Positions 8,548-18,627 of a stretch of DNA of 18,627 nucleotides are shown in pieces. The position numbers were made by a program, and so were the translations under genes. This DNA is from Candidatus Krumholzibacteriota bacterium. GTDB lineage: Bacteria; Krumholzibacteriota; Krumholzibacteriia; LZORAL124-64-63. The notes beneath the pieces are model-generated. The model saw only the letters and a program-made list of their open reading frames with translations, did not search any database and had not been told where the DNA came from. The stretch covers positions 1-18,627 of the forward strand of contig JBDLKA010000071.1 in NCBI GenBank assembly GCA_039714075.1. The letters run 5' to 3'. How positions within the stretch are numbered: the first letter of the stretch is position 1; each line of letters begins with the position of its first letter.

Positions 8548-9927
8548 ATGAATCACGATCATGACACCGGCCGGCCGACCATCCTGGTCCGGACCCTGCG
8601 CCTGTTCGCCCCGGTCCGCGAGGGCGAAGGCGGCACGGTGCTGCTGATGGCCCTGAACGTGTTTCTGCTGTTGACCGCCTACTACATCATCAAGCCCGTG
8701 CGCGAGGCGCTGATTCTTTCGGAGTGGGGGGCGGAGGCCAAGATCTACGCCTCGGCCGGACAGGCGCTCCTGTTGCTGGGCGTGATCCCTCTTTACAGCC
8801 GCCTGGCCGACCGGATGAACGTGCGCCGCCTCATCGCCACGGTGCTGGTGTTTTTCGCCGCCTGCCTGGTGGCTTTCTACCTGTTGGCCCTGATCCGGGT
8901 CCCGCTGGGGATTCCCTTCTATCTGTGGGTGGGAATTTTCAACATGATGGTGGTGGCCCAGTTCTGGTCTTTCGCCAACGACTACTACACCGAAGAGCAG
9001 GGCAAGCGGCTGTTCGCCATCATCGGGTTCGGCATGTCCGCCGGCGCCGTGTTCGGCGGGTTCATCACCAAGAAACTGATCAACCCCCTGGGGCTTTACC
9101 AACTGATGCTGCTGTCGGCCGCCCTGCTGATCGTCAGTCTTGTGCTGACGGTGGCCGCGGCCAATCGCCGGAAACGAGCCGGCCGGGTTTCGACGGATCG
9201 CCCCCCAGTGGAAGAAGACGGGATGGAAGGGCCCGGCGGGTTCGCCCTGGTCCTGAAGAACCGCTACCTGCTGCTGATCGCGGTGATGATGATCCTGGCG
9301 AATCTGGTCAACACCACCGGCGAATACATCCTGGGGGCCAAGGTCAAGGACGGGAGCGAGCAGGCGGTGGCTGAAGTCGTCCGGACCTCCGGCATGAGCG
9401 ACGTTGCTTTCAGCGCCGCCGTGGTCGAGCGGCAGGCCGAAGTGGGCCGGTCCATCGGCGATTTCTATGCCGGGTTCTTCGCGATCGTGAACCTGGTCGG
9501 ATTGCTGACCCAGCTTTTCCTGGTGTCGCGCATCGTTCGCTGGCTGGGAGTGAACCGGGCCCTGATGATCCTGCCCCTGGTGGCCACGGGCGGTTACATC
9601 CTGATGGCCCTGTTCCCGGTTCTGGGGGTGGCCCGCTGGTCCAAGACCGCCGAGAATTCCACCGACTATTCCCTGCAGAACACCGTCCGCAACATGCTCT
9701 TTTTGCCCACCACGCGGGCCGAGAAATTCAAGGCCAAGCAGGCCATCGATGCTTTCTTTGTCCGCGCGGGGGATGTTTTTGCCGCGCTTCTTGTCCTGGG
9801 CGGCACCACGCTTGTTGGTTTAGCTCCTCGTGGATTTGCTCTTGTTAATGTTGGGATAGCTCTTCTCTGGGTGGTGCTGGCCTGGTTCATTGGTCGGCGG
9901 TACCTCCTCTTGTCCCGGGCTGGATAA
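8548..9927 (+). CDS. Npt/Tlc-type NTP/NDP exchange transporter (AAA family ATP:ADP antiporter homologue, MFS-like fold)
   Basis: About 12 hydrophobic segments. Family motifs YYIIKPVREAL, FYLWVGIFN...QFWSFAND...KRLF, DYSLQNTVRNMLFLP...KFKAKQAID..FVRAGD. AAAGGA RBS; starts 13 nt after the kinase-like gene. Confidence 0.88.
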   Translation: MNHDHDTGRPTILVRTLRLFAPVREGEGGTVLLMALNVFLLLTAYYIIKPVREALILSEWGAEAKIYASAGQALLLLGVIPLYSRLADRMNVRRLIATVLVFFAACLVAFYLLALIRVPLGIPFYLWVGIFNMMVVAQFWSFANDYYTEEQGKRLFAIIGFGMSAGAVFGGFITKKLINPLGLYQLMLLSAALLIVSLVLTVAAANRRKRAGRVSTDRPPVEEDGMEGPGGFALVLKNRYLLLIAVMMILANLVNTTGEYILGAKVKDGSEQAVAEVVRTSGMSDVAFSAAVVERQAEVGRSIGDFYAGFFAIVNLVGLLTQLFLVSRIVRWLGVNRALMILPLVATGGYILMALFPVLGVARWSKTAENSTDYSLQNTVRNMLFLPTTRAEKFKAKQAIDAFFVRAGDVFAALLVLGGTTLVGLAPRGFALVNVGIALLWVVLAWFIGRRYLLLSRAG

Positions 9928-10073
9928 CGCTTCCGCCAAGCCCCCTTCCCGTTATGAATAATCCGGGATGTCCTCGTCGCGGCCCTTCGGGCCGCTTCCT
10001 GCGGATTACCCGGATTATTCATAACGGGAAGGAAGCTTGGCACAAGGGTTGCCCTTCCCGGGACAAGAGGAGG
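9903..10073. repeat. Long imperfect palindrome (element 1) spanning the transporter stop codon, with conserved hairpin core
   Basis: Perfect arms 9944-9967/10009-10032 (24 bp), 9935-9941/10035-10041 (7 bp) and 9903-9919/10057-10073 (17 bp, left arm inside the CDS), all on the same axis. Inner hairpin GCGGCCC-TTC-GGGCCGC. Confidence 0.93.
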
Positions 10074-10312
10074 ATCACGGGTCAAAGAAACAGGTGCCTC
10101 CCAAGAGATTGAACCCCGAACCAAACAAGCGCACAAGCTGAGCAAAAACAACAGGTTGTGTTGTTTGTAGGGGTTGAGCGCAGGGGAAAAGAAGGAACTT
10201 TTAAGATCCCCCTGCGGCAAAAAAACGAAAAAGGGCGGATGACGAGCGGCCAATTTCCTGCCGGGCGGGGAAGAAATGCCGCGGGAATCGGAACAGAACA
10301 CGGAGGATGACG

Positions 10313-10813
10313 ATGGCTCCCGAATGCGCAGTTGCAACCATGGCCCAGGCCGGAAAATACCTTTCGTTCCGGCTGGATGACGAGGAATACGGCCTGGAAA
10401 TTCTCAAGGTCCAGGAAATCGTCAGCGCTGCCGGTATCAACGAATTTCCCCGGAATCCTGAAAATGTGCGGGGCCGGATCCGTTTGCGGAGCCGGGATAT
10501 TCCCGTGATCGACATGCGGGGGGTGTTCGGGTTGAAGGCGGTGCTGGAATCGGAAAAGAGCTGCATCATCATCGCCCAGGTTTCCCTGGGGAGTGAATTG
10601 ATCACCATGGGTCTGCTGGTGGACGAGGTTTGCGACGTGCTGAACATCGCCGCGGAGGAAATCCAGTTTCCCCCCACCTGGGCCGGCGGCATGGAAGGCT
10701 CCGACTTCATCAACGGTTTGGGAAAGCTGGAGGACAGGGACGTCATCCTGCTGGAAAGCGAAAAAATCTTCAGCGAGGAAGAACTCAAGGCCGTCGTCCT
10801 GTGGGACGATTAG
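10313..10813 (+). CDS. cheW: Chemotaxis adaptor CheW
   Basis: GKYLSFRLDDEEYGLEILKVQEI...IPVIDMR..FG...CIII...MGLLVDEVCDVLNI...FINGLGK. GGAGG RBS 6 nt before ATG 10313. Confidence 0.92.
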   Translation: MAPECAVATMAQAGKYLSFRLDDEEYGLEILKVQEIVSAAGINEFPRNPENVRGRIRLRSRDIPVIDMRGVFGLKAVLESEKSCIIIAQVSLGSELITMGLLVDEVCDVLNIAAEEIQFPPTWAGGMEGSDFINGLGKLEDRDVILLESEKIFSEEELKAVVLWDD

Positions 10814-10862
10814 AATCCGGTAAGGTAATTACCGTCAACCCATTAAAGAAACGGGTCTTGTT

Positions 10863-11732
10863 GTGACAGTCCGCAACGACATTCTGGCCAAGGTGCGCAC
10901 GATTCCCTCCATGCCTTCGGCCGTGGTCAAGCTCAAGCAATACCTGAGCGATCCCGACGTCAGCTTCGACGAGCTGGCGAAGGTCATAGAATTCGATCCC
11001 GGCTTGACGGCGAACCTGTTGCAGTTGGCCAATTCGGCCTACTTCGGCTGGTCGGGCCACATCAAGACCGTGAAGGAAGCCGTCACCCGGCTGGGCACCA
11101 ACCGCATCTTCCAGATGGTGTTGTGCATGTCGGTGGCTCCCCTGGTGCGCAAACCGGTCAAGGGTTACGACATGGGGTCGAACGGCCTGTGGCACCACTC
11201 CATCGCCACGGCCATCTGCGCCGAACAGCTTGCCGGGACCCTGGATTTTTCCAATCCCGAAGAGGCGTTCACCGCGGGCCTGCTCCACGACATGGGCAAG
11301 ATCCTGCTGGGAACGTTCGTGGAGATCGACGACGAACCCATCAAGAACCTGGTCGAGAACGAAAGCCTGTCCTTCAACGAGGCCGAGCGCCGGGTGCTGG
11401 GAATCGATCACGCCGAAGCGGCGGCCGAACTGCTGCAGTACTGGAAACTGCCGGAGAACGTGGTAGCCGCGGCCAGATGGCATCACGATCCCGACCAGGC
11501 CGATGAAAAACACCGTGACATCGTGGACCTGGTCCATGTGGCGGATATTCTCTGCATCAGGATGGGCTGGGGCATCGGAACCGACGGCCCGTTGTACTGC
11601 CTGAACAACGAAGTGGAAGAACGGCTGGGAGTGGACGCCCAGGTGGAAGACATCGTGACCGACAAGGTGGGCGCCGCCATCGACGATCTTCAGGGGATTC
11701 TGCAGGGCAAACCGGAGCCCGTGCTCAGCTGA
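10863..11732 (+). CDS. Stand-alone HDOD domain protein
   Basis: IPSMPSAVVKL, DPGLTANLLQLANSAYFG, LWHHSIATA, AFTAGLLHDMGK, ERRVLGIDHAE, WKLPE, WHHDP. Confidence 0.92.
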   Translation: MTVRNDILAKVRTIPSMPSAVVKLKQYLSDPDVSFDELAKVIEFDPGLTANLLQLANSAYFGWSGHIKTVKEAVTRLGTNRIFQMVLCMSVAPLVRKPVKGYDMGSNGLWHHSIATAICAEQLAGTLDFSNPEEAFTAGLLHDMGKILLGTFVEIDDEPIKNLVENESLSFNEAERRVLGIDHAEAAAELLQYWKLPENVVAAARWHHDPDQADEKHRDIVDLVHVADILCIRMGWGIGTDGPLYCLNNEVEERLGVDAQVEDIVTDKVGAAIDDLQGILQGKPEPVLS

Positions 11733-11744
11733 CCGGACCGGCGG

Positions 11745-12974
11745 CTACTCGCCGCCGATTTTCACCACCACCGCCTCATTCACCGCTTCACGGACGGCTT
11801 CGTCCAATTCCATTTTCGAGGAAAACTTCAGAAGGTCCATGGCCCGGGCGGTCAGTATGGGCTTGGGCGAGCGGATGGAGCAGCAGTCCCGGTAGGGCAG
11901 GATCGACGTGCCGAAGGCCCCGATCTTCTTGGACCAGGCGGTGATCTCCATCTTGTCCATGCCGATCAACGGCCGCAGGATGGGCAGTTCCACATCCGAA
12001 CTGATGGCGCCCAGGTTGTGCATGGTCTGGCTGGCCACCTGGCCCAGGCTGTCGCCGGTGACCAGGCCCAGGCAGCTGTTGCGACGTGCCAGGCGGACCG
12101 CAGTTTTCACCATGAACCGGCGGAACATGACCATGTCGTAGCTGTCGGAAATCACCCCGATGGCTCTCATCTCGTAGGGAACCACCGGTACCAGGAACAG
12201 CTTCAACGGCACCGGCGAAAACCGCGCCAGGATTTCCACCAGTTCCTTGATCTTGTCGACATCGGCTTCGGCGACGTTGCGGCCCGCATAGAAGTGGACG
12301 AAGTCGGGCCGGCTGCCGCGCCGCATCATCAGCCAGGCGGCCACGGGCGAATCGATGCCGCCGGACAACAGGACCATGGTGCGCCCGCTCGAACCGAAGG
12401 GCAGCCCGCCCCAGGCGGGTTCCTTGCCGGTGAAAACCAGTACGTTCTCTTTCAGGACCAGCACGTTCACCGTAAGTTCGGGCCGGCTCATTTTTCCCGG
12501 CAGCCCCGTGCACTGGTGCACGGCCGCGCCCACGATGCGGCTGACCTCCGGCGACTTCAGGCCGAAGCCGCGGTCGCTGCGGCGGGTCTCGACCTTGAAG
12601 TTGGCCGCCGTGCCCTGGTTTTCGCGCGCCAGCTCACAGGCTGTCCGGCAGATTCCGTCCAGAACGGGTTCGCGGTCGTTTTCCAGGTCGTCGCGCAGGG
12701 CGGGATCGATCTCGCCGCGCGGCACCGTCACCACCGGCGACATCCACTGTAGACCGAACACGTTCCGCAGTTTGGCCGTCACCTCCGGGGCGCGGGCCGG
12801 ATCGGTCAGGTAGACCAGCAGCCGGCTTTCCACGTGCCTGATCGCCTCGACCGGTTCGCCCTTGAGTGCCGCGTTCATGTTGTTGATCAGCTTGCGCAAA
12901 AACATCTTGCGGTTGCGGCCCTTCAGGGCGATTTCCGCGTAGGCGCAGGCGATGATGGGGGTGGCCAGGGCCAT
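11745..12974 (-). CDS. thiI: tRNA 4-thiouridine synthase ThiI (THUMP + PP-loop, no rhodanese domain)
   Basis: YAEIALKGRNR, THUMP (FKVETRRSD), GGLP.GSSG, LLSGGIDSPVA, TGDSLGQVASQT, RPLIGMDK, SILPYRDCC. Start placed at ATG 12974 because of an upstream GGAG; 13010 is an alternative. Confidence 0.93.
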   Translation of the reverse strand: MALATPIIACAYAEIALKGRNRKMFLRKLINNMNAALKGEPVEAIRHVESRLLVYLTDPARAPEVTAKLRNVFGLQWMSPVVTVPRGEIDPALRDDLENDREPVLDGICRTACELARENQGTAANFKVETRRSDRGFGLKSPEVSRIVGAAVHQCTGLPGKMSRPELTVNVLVLKENVLVFTGKEPAWGGLPFGSSGRTMVLLSGGIDSPVAAWLMMRRGSRPDFVHFYAGRNVAEADVDKIKELVEILARFSPVPLKLFLVPVVPYEMRAIGVISDSYDMVMFRRFMVKTAVRLARRNSCLGLVTGDSLGQVASQTMHNLGAISSDVELPILRPLIGMDKMEITAWSKKIGAFGTSILPYRDCCSIRSPKPILTARAMDLLKFSSKMELDEAVREAVNEAVVVKIGGE

Positions 12975-13106
12975 GACGACTCCGGGGGCTTGATTCTCCG
13001 AGTGATCCATGTATTCTGCTGTCTGCTGTTCCCATGCAGAATCTAACAGGAGTGGTTTGGGGCGCAAGAGCGCGTTACCGGCCGTTAGCGGCAAAAGGAC
13101 ATTACG

Positions 13107-14402
13107 ATGGTCGAAAGCGGCGGCATCAAGCTGGACATTTCGGGGCTGGACGGATTCCTGCGGCCCGGCGAGTTGGAGGCCATGGCCCCGCGGGTGGCGG
13201 CCGCCGCGGCCACGCTGGAAAACGGGACCTGCCCCGGCGCGGATTTCCTGGGCTGGCTCGATCTGCCCGCGCGCATCTCCGACGCCGACCTGACCGCGAT
13301 CGAATCCGCGGCCGACCGGGCCCGCCGGGACACCGCCAGTTACGTGGTGATCGGCATCGGCGGCTCTTACCTCGGCGCGCGGGCCGTCCTGGAGGCGCTG
13401 GGCGGCCCGGCTTCCGGCTGTCCCGAAATCCTTTTCGCCGGGACGGGATTGTGCTCGGCCACCCTGGACCGGTTGCTGACCCGGGTGCGGAAGCGGGATT
13501 TTCGCCTGTGCGTGATCTCGAAATCCGGCACAACCCTGGAACCCGCGGTTGCCTTCCGGCTGCTGCGCGGCGAGCTGGAAAAAAAATACGGTCGGGCCGG
13601 GACAGCGGAACGGATCACCGCCGTGACCGACGCCAAGCGGGGCGCGCTACGCGGGCTGGCCGAGGCCGAAGGTTTCGAAACCCACGTCATTCCCGATGAT
13701 GTGGGCGGACGATTTTCCGTCCTCACTCCGGTGGGCCTGGTGCCCTTGGCTGTCGCGGGCGTGGATATCCGGGGACTGGTGGCCGGCGCCCGGGCCATGC
13801 GCGATGCCTGCCTTTCCAGCGACCTGACCGCCAATCCCGCCCACCTCTACGCCGCGGCCCGCAATCTTCTTTACGAAAAGGGTTTTCTCAACGAGGTCAT
13901 GAGCACTTTCCACGGCGATCTGCAGATGTTGCAGGAGTGGTGGAAGCAGCTTTTCGGCGAGAGCGAGGGGAAAAACGGGCAGGGCATCTTTCCGGCCTCG
14001 ACGGTTTTCACCACCGATCTGCACAGCCTGGGCCAGTACATCCAGGACGGCCGCCGCAACCTTCAGGAAACCTTCCTGTGCGTGCGGAGCGGGGTCGGCG
14101 GCCTGACGGTGCCGGGCCAGGACCCGGGCGATCTGGACGGCCTCAACTACCTGGGCGGCCGGAGCCTGGACGATATCAACTGGAAGGCCTACCAGGGGAC
14201 CAGGCAGGCGCATCTGGCCGGGGGAGTTCCCTGCACGAGTTTCGAGGTGGAAACCCTGACGCCCCAGGCAGTTGGCGGGCTGCTCTACCTGTTTGAAAAG
14301 GCCGTGGCGGTGAGCGGTTTGTTGTTGGGAGTCAACCCCTTCGACCAACCGGGGGTGGAAACCTACAAGAAGGAAATGTTCCGCCTGCTGGGTAAATCCT
14401 GA
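13107..14402 (+). CDS. pgi: Glucose-6-phosphate isomerase
   Basis: VIGIGGSYLG, ISKSGTTLEP, DDVGGRFSVLTPVGL, EWWKQLFGESEGK, TDLHSLGQYIQDG, NPFDQPGVETYK. Confidence 0.97.
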   Translation: MVESGGIKLDISGLDGFLRPGELEAMAPRVAAAAATLENGTCPGADFLGWLDLPARISDADLTAIESAADRARRDTASYVVIGIGGSYLGARAVLEALGGPASGCPEILFAGTGLCSATLDRLLTRVRKRDFRLCVISKSGTTLEPAVAFRLLRGELEKKYGRAGTAERITAVTDAKRGALRGLAEAEGFETHVIPDDVGGRFSVLTPVGLVPLAVAGVDIRGLVAGARAMRDACLSSDLTANPAHLYAAARNLLYEKGFLNEVMSTFHGDLQMLQEWWKQLFGESEGKNGQGIFPASTVFTTDLHSLGQYIQDGRRNLQETFLCVRSGVGGLTVPGQDPGDLDGLNYLGGRSLDDINWKAYQGTRQAHLAGGVPCTSFEVETLTPQAVGGLLYLFEKAVAVSGLLLGVNPFDQPGVETYKKEMFRLLGKS

Positions 14403-14430
14403 ACCATACAGGTCTTGATTCACTCGCGGT

Positions 14431-14459
14431 TTGATCTCCCATCAATGACGTTATATTTT
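14431..14459 (+). promoter_or_regulatory. Candidate sigma70 promoter for the lipoprotein gene with overlapping TTGAT-N5-ATCAA palindrome
   Basis: TTGATC (14431-14436), 17 nt, TATTTT (14454-14459). Inverted repeat TTGAT/ATCAA at 14431-14445. Confidence 0.35.
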
Positions 14460-14534
14460 CGACAGGTGATGCGATAATCCCCGGGACCGGATTCCGGTTT
14501 CCCGATGTTTTTCCCCCAGATTGAGGAGAAACCC

Positions 14535-15323
14535 GTGAAGAAGTCAGCCCTTGTCTTCACAGTGATGGCCGTCGTCCTGATGATCGCGGTCGCCGGTTGC
14601 GGCGATAAGAAGGAAACGGCCGAAAGCGCGCCCGCCCCCGCCGCGGATGCGACCACGGCCCAGGCTCCCGCCCAGGCCGCCAACCCCGACATGTGGGAAG
14701 GCACCGTTCTGGAAACCATGAACTCCGGTGGGTACACCTACGTCCACCTCGACACCGGCAGCGAAAAGATCTGGGCCGCCGGTCCGGAAGCCACCGTTTC
14801 GGTCGGCCAGAAAATCGTGATGGACAAGGGCATGGCCATGGGGGAATTCCACGCCAAGTCCCTGGACCGCACGTTCGATCAGATCTACTTCGTCGGCTCC
14901 ATCAAGGGCGAGGGCGAAGCGCCCACCCAGGGAGCGCCCCACGGCGACATGGGTGGAATGAGCTCCCCCGAAGCCGCGTCCCACAGCACCGTGGATAAGG
15001 CCGACATCACTGGTGTCGCCAAGGCCGCCGACGGCTATACGGTCGAGGAGATCTTCACCAAGAGCGCCGAACTTTCCGGCAAGAACGTGAAGGTGCGCGG
15101 CCAGGTCGTGAAGTTCACGCCCAACATCATGGGCACGAACTGGGTGCACATCCAGGACGGCACCGGCAGTGGGCCGACCTCCGATCTTACCGTGACTACC
15201 AGTGCCGTCGTGGCCAACGGGGACATGGTTGTTGTCGAGGGGGCGCTGACGGTCAATAAAGACTTCGGTGCCGGGTACAAGTATGACGCCATTATCGAAG
15301 GTGCTACCGTCACCAAGGAGTAG
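14535..15323 (+). CDS. Lipoprotein with NrfJ-like and OB-fold domains
   Basis: GTG start after GAGGAG. Lipobox IAVAG-C. First domain GTVLETMNSGGYTYV...WAAGP. His/Met linker (PHGDMGGM). Second domain KVRGQVVK..PNIMGTNWVHIQDGTG...KDFGAGYKY. Confidence 0.8.
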   Translation: MKKSALVFTVMAVVLMIAVAGCGDKKETAESAPAPAADATTAQAPAQAANPDMWEGTVLETMNSGGYTYVHLDTGSEKIWAAGPEATVSVGQKIVMDKGMAMGEFHAKSLDRTFDQIYFVGSIKGEGEAPTQGAPHGDMGGMSSPEAASHSTVDKADITGVAKAADGYTVEEIFTKSAELSGKNVKVRGQVVKFTPNIMGTNWVHIQDGTGSGPTSDLTVTTSAVVANGDMVVVEGALTVNKDFGAGYKYDAIIEGATVTKE

Positions 15324-15466
15324 ACCGGAGGCCGGGTGTGACTTGACTCGGCTTAGCGGATGCGTCCACAACAAAAAGGCCCGGCATAAGCCGGGCCTTT
15401 TTGTTGCGAACACGTCCGATGCACCTCGTTCAAGCCGCACCCGGCCTCCGGTCTACTCCTTGGTGA
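15310..15466. repeat. Long imperfect palindrome (element 3) mirroring the lipoprotein 3' end, centred on a terminator hairpin
   Basis: 37-bp arms 15310-15346 and 15430-15466 (2 mismatches), including the stop codon. Axis within 1 nt of the inner 17-bp stem. Confidence 0.93.
15369..15406. terminator. Bidirectional Rho-independent terminator
   Basis: CAACAAAAAGGCCCGGC-ATAA-GCCGGGCCTTTTTGTTG, 45 nt after the lipoprotein stop, with a T-tract on both strands. Confidence 0.88.
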
Positions 15467-15547
15467 AGCACCGCCCTTGATGATGCCGGCATTTGCAACA
15501 TGGCGCACCCAAGGCTCGACCGGTGGCGTCACTTTGACATTCAATGT

Positions 15548-15575
15548 AAAAATCCGAGGTTGGCCTCGGGTTTTT
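15548..15575. terminator. Second bidirectional terminator-like hairpin
   Basis: AAAAATCCGAGG-TTGG-CCTCGGGTTTTT. Confidence 0.6.
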
Positions 15576-15613
15576 GGTTGAATAATCAAAACAGGGTCTT
15601 CATGGGGGTATGA

Positions 15614-15657
15614 GAAAACCGGCGCTTCATCCCATTAAGGGGAAGCGCCGGTTGTTC
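15614..15657 (-). terminator. Rho-independent terminator of the globin gene
   Basis: 12-bp stem AACCGGCGCTTC/GAAGCGCCGGTT (15617-15628/15642-15653) ending in TTTTCTC on the minus strand, just after the globin stop. Confidence 0.7.
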
Positions 15658-15672
15658 GGGCGAGAGATTCGA

Positions 15673-16218
15673 TTACTTGTAGATCACCATGTCCTTCATG
15701 GAGACCAGGATGCAGACGACCTCGTTGATTTCATTTTCGCCGTGGCCGAGGTTCTTCATGGCCTGGCCGACATCGTGGCCGGCCGAGAGGAAGTCGGCTT
15801 CGGTGAACTGGTGGCGGGCATGGGCGGCCTTCATGTTCTGGCCGTGGTAGCTTTCGGTGCCTCCGGTGCCCGCAGCGACGAAATCGGCCACGCTCTTGGC
15901 CAGCTTATCGCCGTCCACGTACTTCATCATCAGCCGGAAATCCTCATTCTCCTGGTGGAGACGCACGATTTCCTTGGTCAGGGCGTGGATTTTCTCGTAT
16001 CCGCCCAGGCGGTCGTACAATGATTTTTCGGCCTGGCGGGCGCTCCGCGCATCCGCGGATTCCTCGCACATGGTCACCAAACCCTGCATGGCCGCCGAGG
16101 ACGAGGGTTGCTCTTTGGGGTGCTCGCCAGGGTGCTCATTCCCGCCGGCGATCGCCAAAACCGGGATAAATACCAGCAAAACAGCCATTTTGACCAGGAT
16201 CGACACTGAATTCTTCAT
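15673..16218 (-). CDS. Group I truncated (2/2) haemoglobin with N-terminal signal peptide
   Basis: ATG 16218 after AAGGAG. Signal MKNSVSILVKMAVLLVFIPVLAIA-G. Globin motifs SLYDRLGG, AAGTGG...Y.G..M..AH (proximal His F8), FTEADF. Confidence 0.88.
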   Translation of the reverse strand: MKNSVSILVKMAVLLVFIPVLAIAGGNEHPGEHPKEQPSSSAAMQGLVTMCEESADARSARQAEKSLYDRLGGYEKIHALTKEIVRLHQENEDFRLMMKYVDGDKLAKSVADFVAAGTGGTESYHGQNMKAAHARHQFTEADFLSAGHDVGQAMKNLGHGENEINEVVCILVSMKDMVIYK

Positions 16219-16256
16219 GCTAAAGACTCCTTCTGGGGATTGAAAGTGATGTTCAT

Positions 16257-16311
16257 ATTCTACATGGTTTTTTGGGAGTTGCATGAAAATCCGATGAAAA
16301 ATGTATGTGAT
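16257..16311 (-). promoter_or_regulatory. Candidate globin promoter with 11-bp-period direct repeats (OmpR/PhoB-type operator)
   Basis: Plus-strand ATGAAAA at 16283 and 16294 and ATGTGAT at 16305 (TTTTCAT on the minus strand). TAGAAT -10-like hexamer at 16257-16262 (minus). No consensus -35. Confidence 0.55.
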
Positions 16312-16324
16312 CTGGAAATTTTTA

Positions 16325-18280
16325 TCAATTCCGGCGCCAGCGATAGCCGAAACCCCTTACCGTTTCTATTCTTGCCTCTTCGGCGCCCAGTTTCCGGCGC
16401 AGCGTTTTGACCACTGCGTCCACGACGTTGCTGCCCACATGGGCCCCGTCCGAGTCCCAGACGGCCTCCAGGATGTCATCCCGCGAGGCGGTGGCCCCGC
16501 CGAGGGCTTCCAGATACTCCATGAGTCCGTATTCGAGTGGTGTGAGGGGCACTTCCTCGCCGTCGAGAACCAGGGCGCGGCGGTCCCGGTCCAGCAGCCC
16601 GCCTTCCTGGACGCCCAGTTCCTCGCCCACCAGTCCGGTGATCCAGCCGTCCACCGAGGCGGGGCCGAAGTCGAGCATCGCGGCCGGGAAGGAAGTGGAG
16701 CCCAGCTTGGCCGCACAATCCTCGAGAATCCGGAATCCGAGACGGGTCGCCACTTCCGCGTAGGGGCCGAGGTCGGCCACCGTGAGATAGGCCCGCCGCA
16801 GGGCCGGGCGCAGTTCCATATAGGTCCTTTTCATGTCTAGCCAGCAGGCGGCCTGTTCGGCCGAGGGGATCTCCCCGTCCCGGTCCGCCAGCCAGCGGCG
16901 GATGAAAAGGCATTTGCTCCCGGCGGGGATCGGCTCTTCCGCGAGGTGCCGGCTCCAGGACTTGGCAACCGGGTCCTTTCGCAACAACGCCGCGGGCAGG
17001 TCGGCGGCCTCGCTCATGCAGTAGAAACCGACCACACTGTCTTCGCGGTCGCGCACGACACGGAAAGCGTCGGGACGAAAGGTCCACCATGCTTCCAGGG
17101 CGGCGGCGCCGTCCGGACCGTCGTGACGGGCGGCAATCGCCTGAACCGCCTTTGCATCCTCGGCACGGGCGGCCTCCACGGCGAACTCCAGGTTTCCGGA
17201 GGGGAAAAAGGCCTCGCGGACGACGGGATTTTCGATCAGGTAGATCATGTCGGCGGTGTAGCGCCAGATGTCGGCCACCGGCGCGGCGCTCACTTCCCGG
17301 CGCAACTGCCGCCAGACCCGGCGGCGGCAGGCGTAGTACTGCTCCGGGTCGTTGGCCTTCAGGGTTCGCGCCATGGCTTCGCGGACGGTCTCGTGGAGAC
17401 AGAGCCCATCCCGCCGGATATCGACGATGGGCAGCTCGCGCAGGGCATCGAAAAGTTTCTCGTCGCCGAGGGAAAACGCGCGCAAAAGCGAGCGCGTGAT
17501 CCGGCGGGCCACACTGGCGAAACGCAGGGCGTCGCGAAGCGAGGGATCGGCGACGTCGTCCAGGAACATGGCCGCGAGCTGCTGCATCACTTCCTGGATG
17601 GCCCTTTCGCGAAAGGCCTCCGCCCCATGGACGCGGGCGGATGAAGCGGCGAGTTTCAGGGCCATGGGATTGCCGTGGGTCACGGCGGCCAACTGGTCGG
17701 CCGCAGCGGAATCGAGACCCGCGGCGGTCAGCAGCTCCATGCCGTCGGCCCTGTCCAGCGGCTCGACGGGCCGGGCGTGGACCAGGCCGTACCAGTCGGG
17801 CGACGTCAGCCACTGGGTTACCGGCGGGCGCCGGCCGGCCATCAACAGGCGGACGTTGTCCGGCATGGCGGGCAAAAAGACGCCGCGCAACCAGGTGTCC
17901 ATCAGCAGAAAAGAATCGTAGTGATCCACCGCCAGGATCACGGTGGCGTCGGTCTTCCCCAGAATCCCCACCGCGTCGTCGAGACTTGCCGCCGCGTCAC
18001 CGGTCAGCCGGCCCAGCTCCGACAGGAAGCCGCGTTCGGTCGGTTCGACGAGCCGCCCGTCCATCACCAGGACCTGTGCCCCTTTGTCGCCGGCCTGCTC
18101 GGCGAATTTCATCACCAGTGATGATTTTCCCACCCCGGGAATGCCGTGAAGGAAGACAACCAGGGGTTCGGCCCCGTCCAGCAACTTGTGCAGATGGGCG
18201 AGATCCTCATCGCGTCCGACAAAGGCTTCGCCGGCCCTGCGCGCAAGCAGGCGGTCGATGGATTTGGATTGATCCCGCAT
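16325..18280 (-). CDS. STAND-like AAA ATPase fused to a C-terminal OmpR/PhoB winged-helix DNA-binding domain (transcriptional regulator)
   Basis: FVGRDEDL, Walker A GIPGVGKS, Walker B ILAVDHYD, GxP motif THGNPMAL. C-terminal LTPLEYGLMEYL...SRDDILEAVW...SNVVDAVVKTLRRKL...IETVRGFGYR. Confidence 0.9.
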   Translation of the reverse strand: MRDQSKSIDRLLARRAGEAFVGRDEDLAHLHKLLDGAEPLVVFLHGIPGVGKSSLVMKFAEQAGDKGAQVLVMDGRLVEPTERGFLSELGRLTGDAAASLDDAVGILGKTDATVILAVDHYDSFLLMDTWLRGVFLPAMPDNVRLLMAGRRPPVTQWLTSPDWYGLVHARPVEPLDRADGMELLTAAGLDSAAADQLAAVTHGNPMALKLAASSARVHGAEAFRERAIQEVMQQLAAMFLDDVADPSLRDALRFASVARRITRSLLRAFSLGDEKLFDALRELPIVDIRRDGLCLHETVREAMARTLKANDPEQYYACRRRVWRQLRREVSAAPVADIWRYTADMIYLIENPVVREAFFPSGNLEFAVEAARAEDAKAVQAIAARHDGPDGAAALEAWWTFRPDAFRVVRDREDSVVGFYCMSEAADLPAALLRKDPVAKSWSRHLAEEPIPAGSKCLFIRRWLADRDGEIPSAEQAACWLDMKRTYMELRPALRRAYLTVADLGPYAEVATRLGFRILEDCAAKLGSTSFPAAMLDFGPASVDGWITGLVGEELGVQEGGLLDRDRRALVLDGEEVPLTPLEYGLMEYLEALGGATASRDDILEAVWDSDGAHVGSNVVDAVVKTLRRKLGAEEARIETVRGFGYRWRRN

Positions 18281-18318
18281 AAATAGTCCCTTTCCCGCTC
18301 ATAAGCGGGTTTTGGCGT

Positions 18319-18420
18319 GGGGCCTGTCCCCATATATGGAGAACCCGGGAGGTCCTCGCTGCGATCCTGCGGATCGCGGCTGCGGAGTACCCGGGTTCTC
18401 CATATATGGGGACAGGCCCC
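18319..18420. repeat. Long palindrome (element 2): 31-bp perfect arms around the same hairpin core as element 1
   Basis: GGGGCCTGTCCCCATATATGGAGAACCCGGG (18319-18349) and its exact reverse complement (18390-18420). Inner hairpin GCGATCC-TGC-GGATCGC. Confidence 0.95.
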
Positions 18421-18431
18421 GAAGCAACTAC

Positions 18432-18627
18432 CTACTTATGGTCGGTAAGATACTTCGCCACACCTTCGGCGGTGGGGGTCATGGCGTCGTCGCCTTTGGA
18501 CCAGTTCGCGGGGCAGACTTCCCCGTGCTCCTCGAGGTGCTGCAGGGCGTCGACCATGCGGATCATCTCGTCGATGTTCCGGCCCAGGCCCAGGTTGTTG
18601 ACGGTGCTGTGCTGCACGATGCCGTCC
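18432..18627 (-). CDS. ahpC: 2-Cys peroxiredoxin (AhpC/Prx1), C-terminal fragment; 5' part outside window
   Basis: DGIVQHSTVNNLGLGRNIDEMIRMVDALQHLEEHGEVCPANWSKG...: GRN motif and resolving VCP motif. Confidence 0.92.
   Translation of the reverse strand, partial: DGIVQHSTVNNLGLGRNIDEMIRMVDALQHLEEHGEVCPANWSKGDDAMTPTAEGVAKYLTDHK

Follow-up and report, generated by a model that had tools for sequence, protein, structure and literature searches.

A family of gene-end palindromes with a fixed tip and host-mirrored arms in Candidatus Krumholzibacteriota

A stretch of 18,627 nucleotides from a Candidatus Krumholzibacteriota bacterium (contig JBDLKA010000071.1 of assembly GCA_039714075.1; below, the window, which is contig C71 of the source genome G000) contains two long hairpins whose tips lie on the + strand at 9968-10008 (copy 1) and 18350-18389 (copy 2). 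They belong to a real repeat family, here family A, a variant of the extragenic palindromic repeat in which a fixed tip is carried on arms that mirror host sequence. We did not find it in print: no published description came to light in the literature searched, subscription papers and preprint supplements being outside its scope. Our account of it, to which we give even chances, is that these are gene-end palindromes whose tip was once mobile and is read as folded antisense DNA by a putative protein, and whose arms are kept by template switching.

The tip combined with complementary flanks occurs 26 times in the source genome against 0 and 1 times in two codon-block shuffles, and a census of long-armed hairpins in that genome gives 29 family copies, two of which are apparently one locus at overlapping contig ends. 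Its fixed part reads ATGTCCTC(A/G), then a variable hairpin, then CTGCGGATTA, and the conserved tip measures 22-41 bases. Across 216 armed copies 16 tip positions are almost invariant, and the outer three-base loop takes few variants (ATG/TTA in 229 of 260 copies). An earlier note on this DNA had given both hairpin sequences, which are present in the window exactly as it wrote them, and had proposed a structured element with an invariant mismatched core. The near invariance of the fixed halves in the 216 copies agrees with that proposal, and the further copies that it suggested seeking were found both in the genome and in its relatives.

The family is concentrated near its source and patchy within genera. 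All seven same-genus genomes hold exact matches, 11-19 in each, and at least one exact copy is present in 10 of 24 same-family genomes and in 0 of 16 genomes of other families; the reversed pattern matched none. With a looser pattern 83 of 208 genomes in the phylum were matched, many of them by one chance-like match each, and counts within a genus run from 0 to 14-18 (0 to 14 in genus g39, 0 to 17 in genus g2). Among the matches listed, the records carrying the element include ones named Candidatus Krumholzibacteriia or -ota, and armed copies also occur in records named Firmicutes, Clostridiales, Coriobacteriaceae and Bacillota. Records named Fibrobacteraceae or Gemmatimonadales have neighbour genes in common with Krumholzibacteria loci and were not taken as separate phyla. 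One Bacillota genome has 11 copies, and 250 others of its order gave one match, which is not a hairpin. In metagenomes 89 of 130 matches are armed, and of 19 matches in viral contigs, inspected by eye, none is.

The arms behave quite unlike the tip. To compare them, part of 102 pattern hits in seven related genomes was fetched and 85 copies were examined, of which 68 map to 23 of the 26 loci of the source genome and 17 are unmapped. Arms are unique to each site and 25-60 bp long (mean 40), and over the 30 bp next to the tip their complementarity within a genome is 95.5% in 93 copies, 41 of them perfect. From species to species a given arm is 0.67 identical, and its outer 22 bases are 0.60 identical, against 0.61 at four-fold sites of the adjoining gene. 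Differences in one arm are mirrored on its partner in 1628 of 1890 cases, in an ungapped count of non-independent pairs, while isolated mismatches show no wobble excess (G.T 127 vs A.C 150; in the messenger RNA (mRNA) sense, G.T 28 vs A.C 41). Drift at the neutral rate does not fit slow compensatory selection, and copying of one arm from the other would fit it. The compensatory outer-stem changes that the earlier note read between the two window copies do not hold up, since those stems are non-homologous and the arms site-specific (non-orthologous arms 0.485 identical vs 0.476 when shuffled).

The arms also reach into genes. In 35 of 88 copies, against 0 of 84 controls, the far side of the hairpin mirrors the gene's final 12 bases; one copy has a 60-bp perfect mirror covering nine codons and the stop, and at contig C8, position 52833, the mirror has been copied over the start of the tip (ATG to TAA). 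Template switching is reported to homogenise the arms of individual inverted repeats and to invert their spacers, which measure 2-5 bp in the yeast cases (PMC8604942, PMC8794818, PMC5941160). The arm dynamics themselves are well supported, and this known mechanism would probably account for them: template switching during replication would lengthen the arms into the flanks, keep them complementary or perfect, and sometimes flip the tip. The present family differs from those cases in being dispersed, with a conserved spacer of 22-41 bases and arms drifting at the neutral rate.

Such flips are seen. At 10 of 23 orthologous loci the tip is found in either orientation. The tip of copy 2 is opposite to that of all four of its orthologues, which were fetched by flank homology, and compared with the genome G001 tip at this site it is an exact reverse complement. 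The opposite gene context of the two window copies, to which the earlier note drew attention, is explained by this reversal of the copy 2 tip. At one two-orientation locus the longest perfect runs are 12 and 18 bp, too short to mislead an assembler, and further flipped loci are common to two or three assemblies. The window overlaps contig C113 by 99 bases, which suggests that the source genome was assembled with a long final word size. We take the flips as real but possibly over-counted.

The apex of the tip points to the molecule that may be read. A C-TNC-G apex is present in 66 of 122 distinct tips and lacking in 56. Of the 66, 64 have the longer stem when read as a triloop and 2 when read as a UNCG tetraloop. 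On the antisense strand these loops read GAA (43), GCA (16) and GTA (5), and the commonest other loop is AAA (12). Loops of the form d(GNA) are reported to be very stable in DNA (PMC3201870, PMC13037366), and these antisense GNA triloops supply a signature of single-stranded DNA, in line with the structured single-strand element that the earlier note had suspected. The folded tip on the antisense strand would then be read as DNA by a putative protein. Both window hairpins fold far better than shuffled sequence on either strand, as DNA or as RNA (z -11.9 to -14.7; 0 of 200 shuffles equal), and the computed folding energies of the two strands differ by less than 1 kcal/mol, which does not decide between them. 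Among orthologues the middle base of the apex varies and the flanking bases are mostly kept, a pattern that suggests continuing selection.

The tips are not neutral survivors. The chance that 16 neutral tip positions survive is 0.61^16 = 0.0004, so that the 68 intact orthologous tips cannot be explained in this way. Retrieval by pattern favours intact tips, and those fetched by flank homology instead, among them all four orthologues of copy 2, are intact too. Taken together, the sequence comparisons indicate that copies are now inherited with the locus and held by purifying selection. Tip length nevertheless varies among orthologues at 11 of 23 loci, and neighbouring copies in genus g2 have a common variant; these length differences and shared neighbour variants imply that local exchange occurs.

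Copies sit at the ends of genes, with the tip mostly 25-58 bases downstream of the stop codon. Opposed pairs 150-330 bases apart are two copies, each behind its own gene, so that it is transcription, not the replication fork, with which orientation goes. When inverted pairs at spacings of 150-2100 bases were considered as the possible bounds of enzyme cassettes, they proved to be single copies behind separate gene ends. The loci are conserved, and the genes upstream are housekeeping genes. Upstream genes also have a higher codon score (0.34 vs 0.27), a crude proxy from a gene caller made for this analysis. The inner 12-15 bp of many arms resemble the plain terminators of the source genome, with an A-run and a G+C stem, and at least four T in the six bases directly after the tip are found in 132 of 260 copies, against 35 of 257 further out. 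About half of the copies probably still act as terminators. The earlier note had seen no U-tract and concluded that the element is not a terminator; neither window copy has a clear tract, as it said, but the conclusion was too strong for a family in which about half of the copies are T-tracted and the inner arm is terminator-like.

Past mobility of the tip is likely, given the patchiness within genera and the variety of elements at the same gene ends. At gene ends that carry family A elsewhere, the source genome may have a plain terminator, a TwoAYGGAY element (see below), a tip of a second family, B, or some other tip, these comparisons being mostly cross-genus. The tip would have spread as a small mobile unit into terminator-type hairpins or along with them. 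One further example was noted at contig C65 near 10000, where another tip sits in a terminator-type stem and other genomes carry family A.

Several observations weigh against our account. Tip identity follows the locus and not the genome (tips are identical in 56 of the 151 pairs from one locus, in 19 of the 606 from one genome and in 139 of the 3521 remaining pairs), so that tips are inherited with the locus and there is no current spread in the genus. Comparison of orthologous loci, which the earlier note had proposed, gave no clean empty/filled pair among close relatives, so that insertion is presumptive. Neither profile nor neighbour-gene searches found a reader or mobilising enzyme. Some flips may be errors of short-read assembly: most flipped copies have perfect runs of at least 20 bp, which short-read assemblers can mis-orient, and contigs from two DNA runs of one study break at the copy 2 tip and do not fix its orientation. 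Nor are the arms of flipped copies any longer (34.1 vs 32.3, p = 0.51). The lack of long hairpins without a tip may reflect loss of short-loop palindromes and not growth driven by the tip. Finally, two findings fit a role in RNA. One is that orientation follows transcription: the strand with ATG is that of the mRNA in 77 of 93 copies, and of 30 copies in five genomes of few contigs from other genera 28 follow the mRNA, two are uncalled and none is flipped. The other is that the inner stems, read on the mRNA strand, have G.T 20 times and A.C 3 times, from few independent events and subfamilies.

These findings lend some weight to a different reading, in which the element is a long hairpin at the mRNA 3' end that terminates, protects or processes the transcript, its internal loop binding an RNA-binding protein or nuclease, and template switching does nothing beyond maintaining the stem. 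We regard this as possible, though clearly less probable than the DNA-based account. The distance from the stop codon, the T-rich tracts and the convergent genes whose paired copies each follow their own gene all favour it along with the strand and G.T counts. It is opposed by the apex register, which is a triloop and not a UNCG tetraloop, by arms without a G-U excess, by the persistence of at least one robust flipped copy and by the absence of a U-tract from either window copy. A third reading, which we consider unlikely, makes the family a selfish, self-building palindrome, whose folded tip is recognised by a dedicated nicking or priming enzyme that mirrors the flank at insertion and later. 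Long arms do seem to go with tips: among 62 long-armed hairpins of the source genome 50 bear one of four recurrent tips, and most others are repeats with shared termini, while none of the plain hairpins at 2122 gene ends exceeds 17 bp. The narrow range of arm length and the mirrored gene ends would also be expected. No candidate enzyme adjoins any copy, however, the arms in the Bacillota genome are shorter, partly common between loci and keep their mismatches, and known template switching already accounts for the pattern.

The remaining candidates are known substrates of known enzymes, and all are largely refuted. The earlier note had inclined to a substrate of HUH transposases such as repetitive extragenic palindromes (REPs) or the ends of IS200/IS605, or to an attC site. 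A REP-like substrate, single or as the REP doublet known as REPIN, of a Y1 transposase (RAYT, the REP-associated type, or IS200/IS605) has a certain likeness in its favour, since group 2 REPs are described as extragenic imperfect hairpins with a bulge (PMC8266576) and GNA loops indicate single-stranded DNA. It is very improbable all the same. None of 260 copies has a GTAG tag; 3 of the 24 element-rich genomes have the Y1 transposase, as do 9 of the 56 element-poor ones (p = 1.0); a RAYT/HUH gene flanked by copies was sought and none was found; and REPINs are described as having conserved ends and a variable middle (PMC3116915), the reverse of this family. The genomes in this and the following rich-to-poor comparisons are incomplete and related, and some were entered under two handles, so that the scans affected are not independent. 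The PF01797 profile matched 13 of 91 family genomes, was absent from the element-rich, few-contig genomes G369 and G428, and gave two hits in the source genome on contigs of 1.1-1.3 kb without tips.

Even less probable is a remnant of IS1380-family ends that were joined, head to head, with a spacer between them, a likeness to which the earlier note pointed. The first 14 bases of the copy 1 right arm are indeed the terminus of IS1380-family elements in relatives, whose genes are bounded by CCCGGATTATTCATGAA, and of a MITE (miniature inverted-repeat transposable element) on contig C98. The right half of the tip has CGGATTA in common with this terminus, and an IS1380 gene is present in the source genome. 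The match belongs to copy 1 and does not characterise the family: agreement at 12 or more of the 14 bases is seen in 3 of 260 copies, 137 of 260 right arms begin otherwise than with CCCGG/CCGGG or TTC, the orthologues of copy 1 carry different arms, and the transposase is found in 7 of 24 element-rich and 14 of 56 element-poor genomes (p = 0.78). It is possible that an IS1380-type MITE, such as the one in the same intergenic region of genome G002, donated the copy 1 arm. The MITE-like element of contig C98, with its IS1380-type termini, lies at 9644-9828; one was recorded at locus L032 too, and that of G002 is related.

The least probable reading of all is an attC-like site of an integron integrase. 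Like attC, the element stands behind an open reading frame and is oriented with it, with a variable terminal hairpin and a bulged base, and an integron integrase is present in the source genome. The R boxes that attC sites carry at the stem base (RYYYAAC / GTTRRRY) are found in 0 of 260 copies, however, and the upstream genes are conserved housekeeping genes and not cassette arrays. The integrase, present in 54 of 91 family genomes, occurs in 16 of the 24 element-rich genomes and in 30 of the 56 element-poor ones (p = 0.33), and falls below cut-off in genome G050. In the source genome it lies at C87 9542-10498, above the curated cut-off, and no attC-like site is found within its 4-kb locus. 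Other enzymes fared no better as candidates. Reverse transcriptase gave no match in the source genome, with three of seven genomes of the genus positive; IS110 gave none there either, with two of five genomes positive; and a small GIY-YIG nuclease gave one match, in a 631-residue frame. None of these tracks the family. Clustering of the open reading frames that adjoin copies returned orthologous host genes only and no shared mobile gene.

Among known elements the closest is TwoAYGGAY (Rfam RF01731), and it is this motif that the family behaves most like. Its function has been open since 2010 (PMC2864571), and a preprint describes variation in copy number and divergent doublets some 249 bp apart, with the mechanism left open (10.64898/2026.09.22.753630). 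As described there, TwoAYGGAY is a multi-copy intergenic element whose basal stem is long and whose copy number varies strongly, all of which family A shares, and family A pairs have the doublet geometry when read on the TAA strand. In the source genome TwoAYGGAY also has site-specific arms and a gene-end position, and replaces family A at some gene ends. Family A differs in being one short hairpin without AYGGAY loops in ordinary copies, and mirrored flanks and flips do not figure in the parts of the TwoAYGGAY accounts on which we drew. RF01731 itself gave no match in the window at E up to 5 or in 12 loci at E up to 0.5, and no Rfam family rose above threshold in either set, which returned sub-threshold microRNA-type hairpin matches only. 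One TwoAYGGAY-type copy in the source genome passes the Rfam threshold (47.2 bits vs 43). At C131 3341-3629 (locus L442) a hybrid was observed, an AYGGAY-capped hairpin whose base is the family A motif; this hybrid adjoins a TwoAYGGAY element above the Rfam threshold and occurs at one locus in three genomes (also L440 and L441).

Other repeats are more distant. REPs, REPINs and bacterial interspersed mosaic elements with RAYTs are likewise small extragenic palindromes 3' of genes with conserved mismatches and a bulge, and differ in their GTAG tag, their associated Y1 transposase and their copy number, which is reported in hundreds where family A has tens; family A also has the conserved part in the middle and the variable part in the arms (PMC8266576, PMC3116915, PMC3733652). 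The SPRITE element of Streptococcus pneumoniae is described as terminator-like and near gene 3' ends, with about 30 copies and no transposase or empty site found; by that description it is set apart by a conserved sequence, an 18-bp duplex and a long U-rich tail, whereas in family A conservation is confined to the tip and each site has its own stem (PMC3049150).

Family A is not alone in its build. Of the 62 long-armed hairpins of the source genome, the 50 with recurrent tips comprise 29 of family A, 10 of TwoAYGGAY type, 9 of family B and 2 of family D. A family B element (tip TTAG...ATGC) lies in the window at 15310-15466 on the + strand, with a complete plain terminator inside its tip and arms that mirror the gene end, and other genomes carry the family A tip at that gene end; in all nine armed family B copies of the source genome the TTAG strand is the mRNA strand. 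The family D tip (GGCGAATC...GCTGAGC), at C116 4114-4286 and C209 716-896, also has site-specific arms and an inner terminator, and resembles family B on the other strand. A separate repeat family with shared termini, often with an inner C/G-run palindrome, was noted at C16 48866-49017, C26 1360-1521, C32 33236-33395, C93 5160-5315 and C116 199-400.

In the window, the tip of copy 1 has 41 bases (ATG-TCCTCG, the variable hairpin, CTGCGGA-TTA) with apex TTC, or GAA on the opposite strand. It stands between perfect arms of 24 bp at 9944-9967 and 10009-10032, and beyond these lie older mirror extensions. The left one (9903-9943) is degraded, contains the final codons and stop of the upstream gene, and covaries with the right side among orthologues; with the right one (10033-10073) and including mismatches, the inverted repeat spans 9903-10073 (65 bp, 86%). 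The right extension contains TGGCAC-N5-TTGC at 10038-10052, which we take to be sigma-54-like. This motif is found in six of six other genomes in which the right flank of copy 1 was read; it lies about 290 bases ahead of CheW-HDOD genes, and its first part is mirrored left of copy 1. The upstream gene (8548-9927, + strand; PF03219, PF07690) encodes a TLC/MFS-type transporter and has its stop 40 bases before the tip, its last codons falling within the old mirror. In genome G005 and at two metagenome loci this gene is absent and the preceding gene abuts the element, and in G001 a palindrome related to the C/G-run repeat family replaces the left part of copy 1. The downstream gene (10340-10813, + strand; PF01584) encodes a CheW-like protein. 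One sequencing-run contig, which may come from the source sample, spans copy 1 without differences.

The tip of copy 2 has 40 bases, is of the AGG/GTA variant with apex TGC, and as placed is antisense to the family norm; its arms, at 18319-18349 and 18390-18420, are perfect over 31 bp each. Upstream lies the 3' part of a gene for an AhpC/TSA peroxiredoxin (18432-18627, - strand), with its stop 42 bases from the tip; the gene runs on into contig C113, on whose part PF00578 was matched. Downstream, on the - strand at 16325-18280, is a gene for an AAA ATPase with a C-terminal winged-helix regulator domain. In a relative about 94% alike, from sequencing run X1, 235 different bases replace the 149 that hold copy 2 (18281-18431 of the window).

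In summary, we describe a repeat family that is inside out: its middle is fixed, and its stem is host sequence rewritten at the neutral rate. Stem covariation of this kind is no proof of selection on RNA, which is a caution for motif-finding pipelines. An identical 18-base tip in distant phyla, strongly selected at each locus, would imply a nucleic-acid-binding partner, and the tip is short enough for direct use as bait. Moreover, the link with TwoAYGGAY offers a testable route into a motif of open function. It is tempting to speculate, though we think it rather doubtful, that the tip is the recognition site of a DNA-processing system that inserts hairpin tips at gene ends and rebuilds their stems as mirrors of host sequence, and that the tips of families A, B and D and TwoAYGGAY, though unrelated to one another, use it interchangeably across phyla. 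If this were true, TwoAYGGAY and many other repeats with a constant tip and site-specific arms would have one mechanism.

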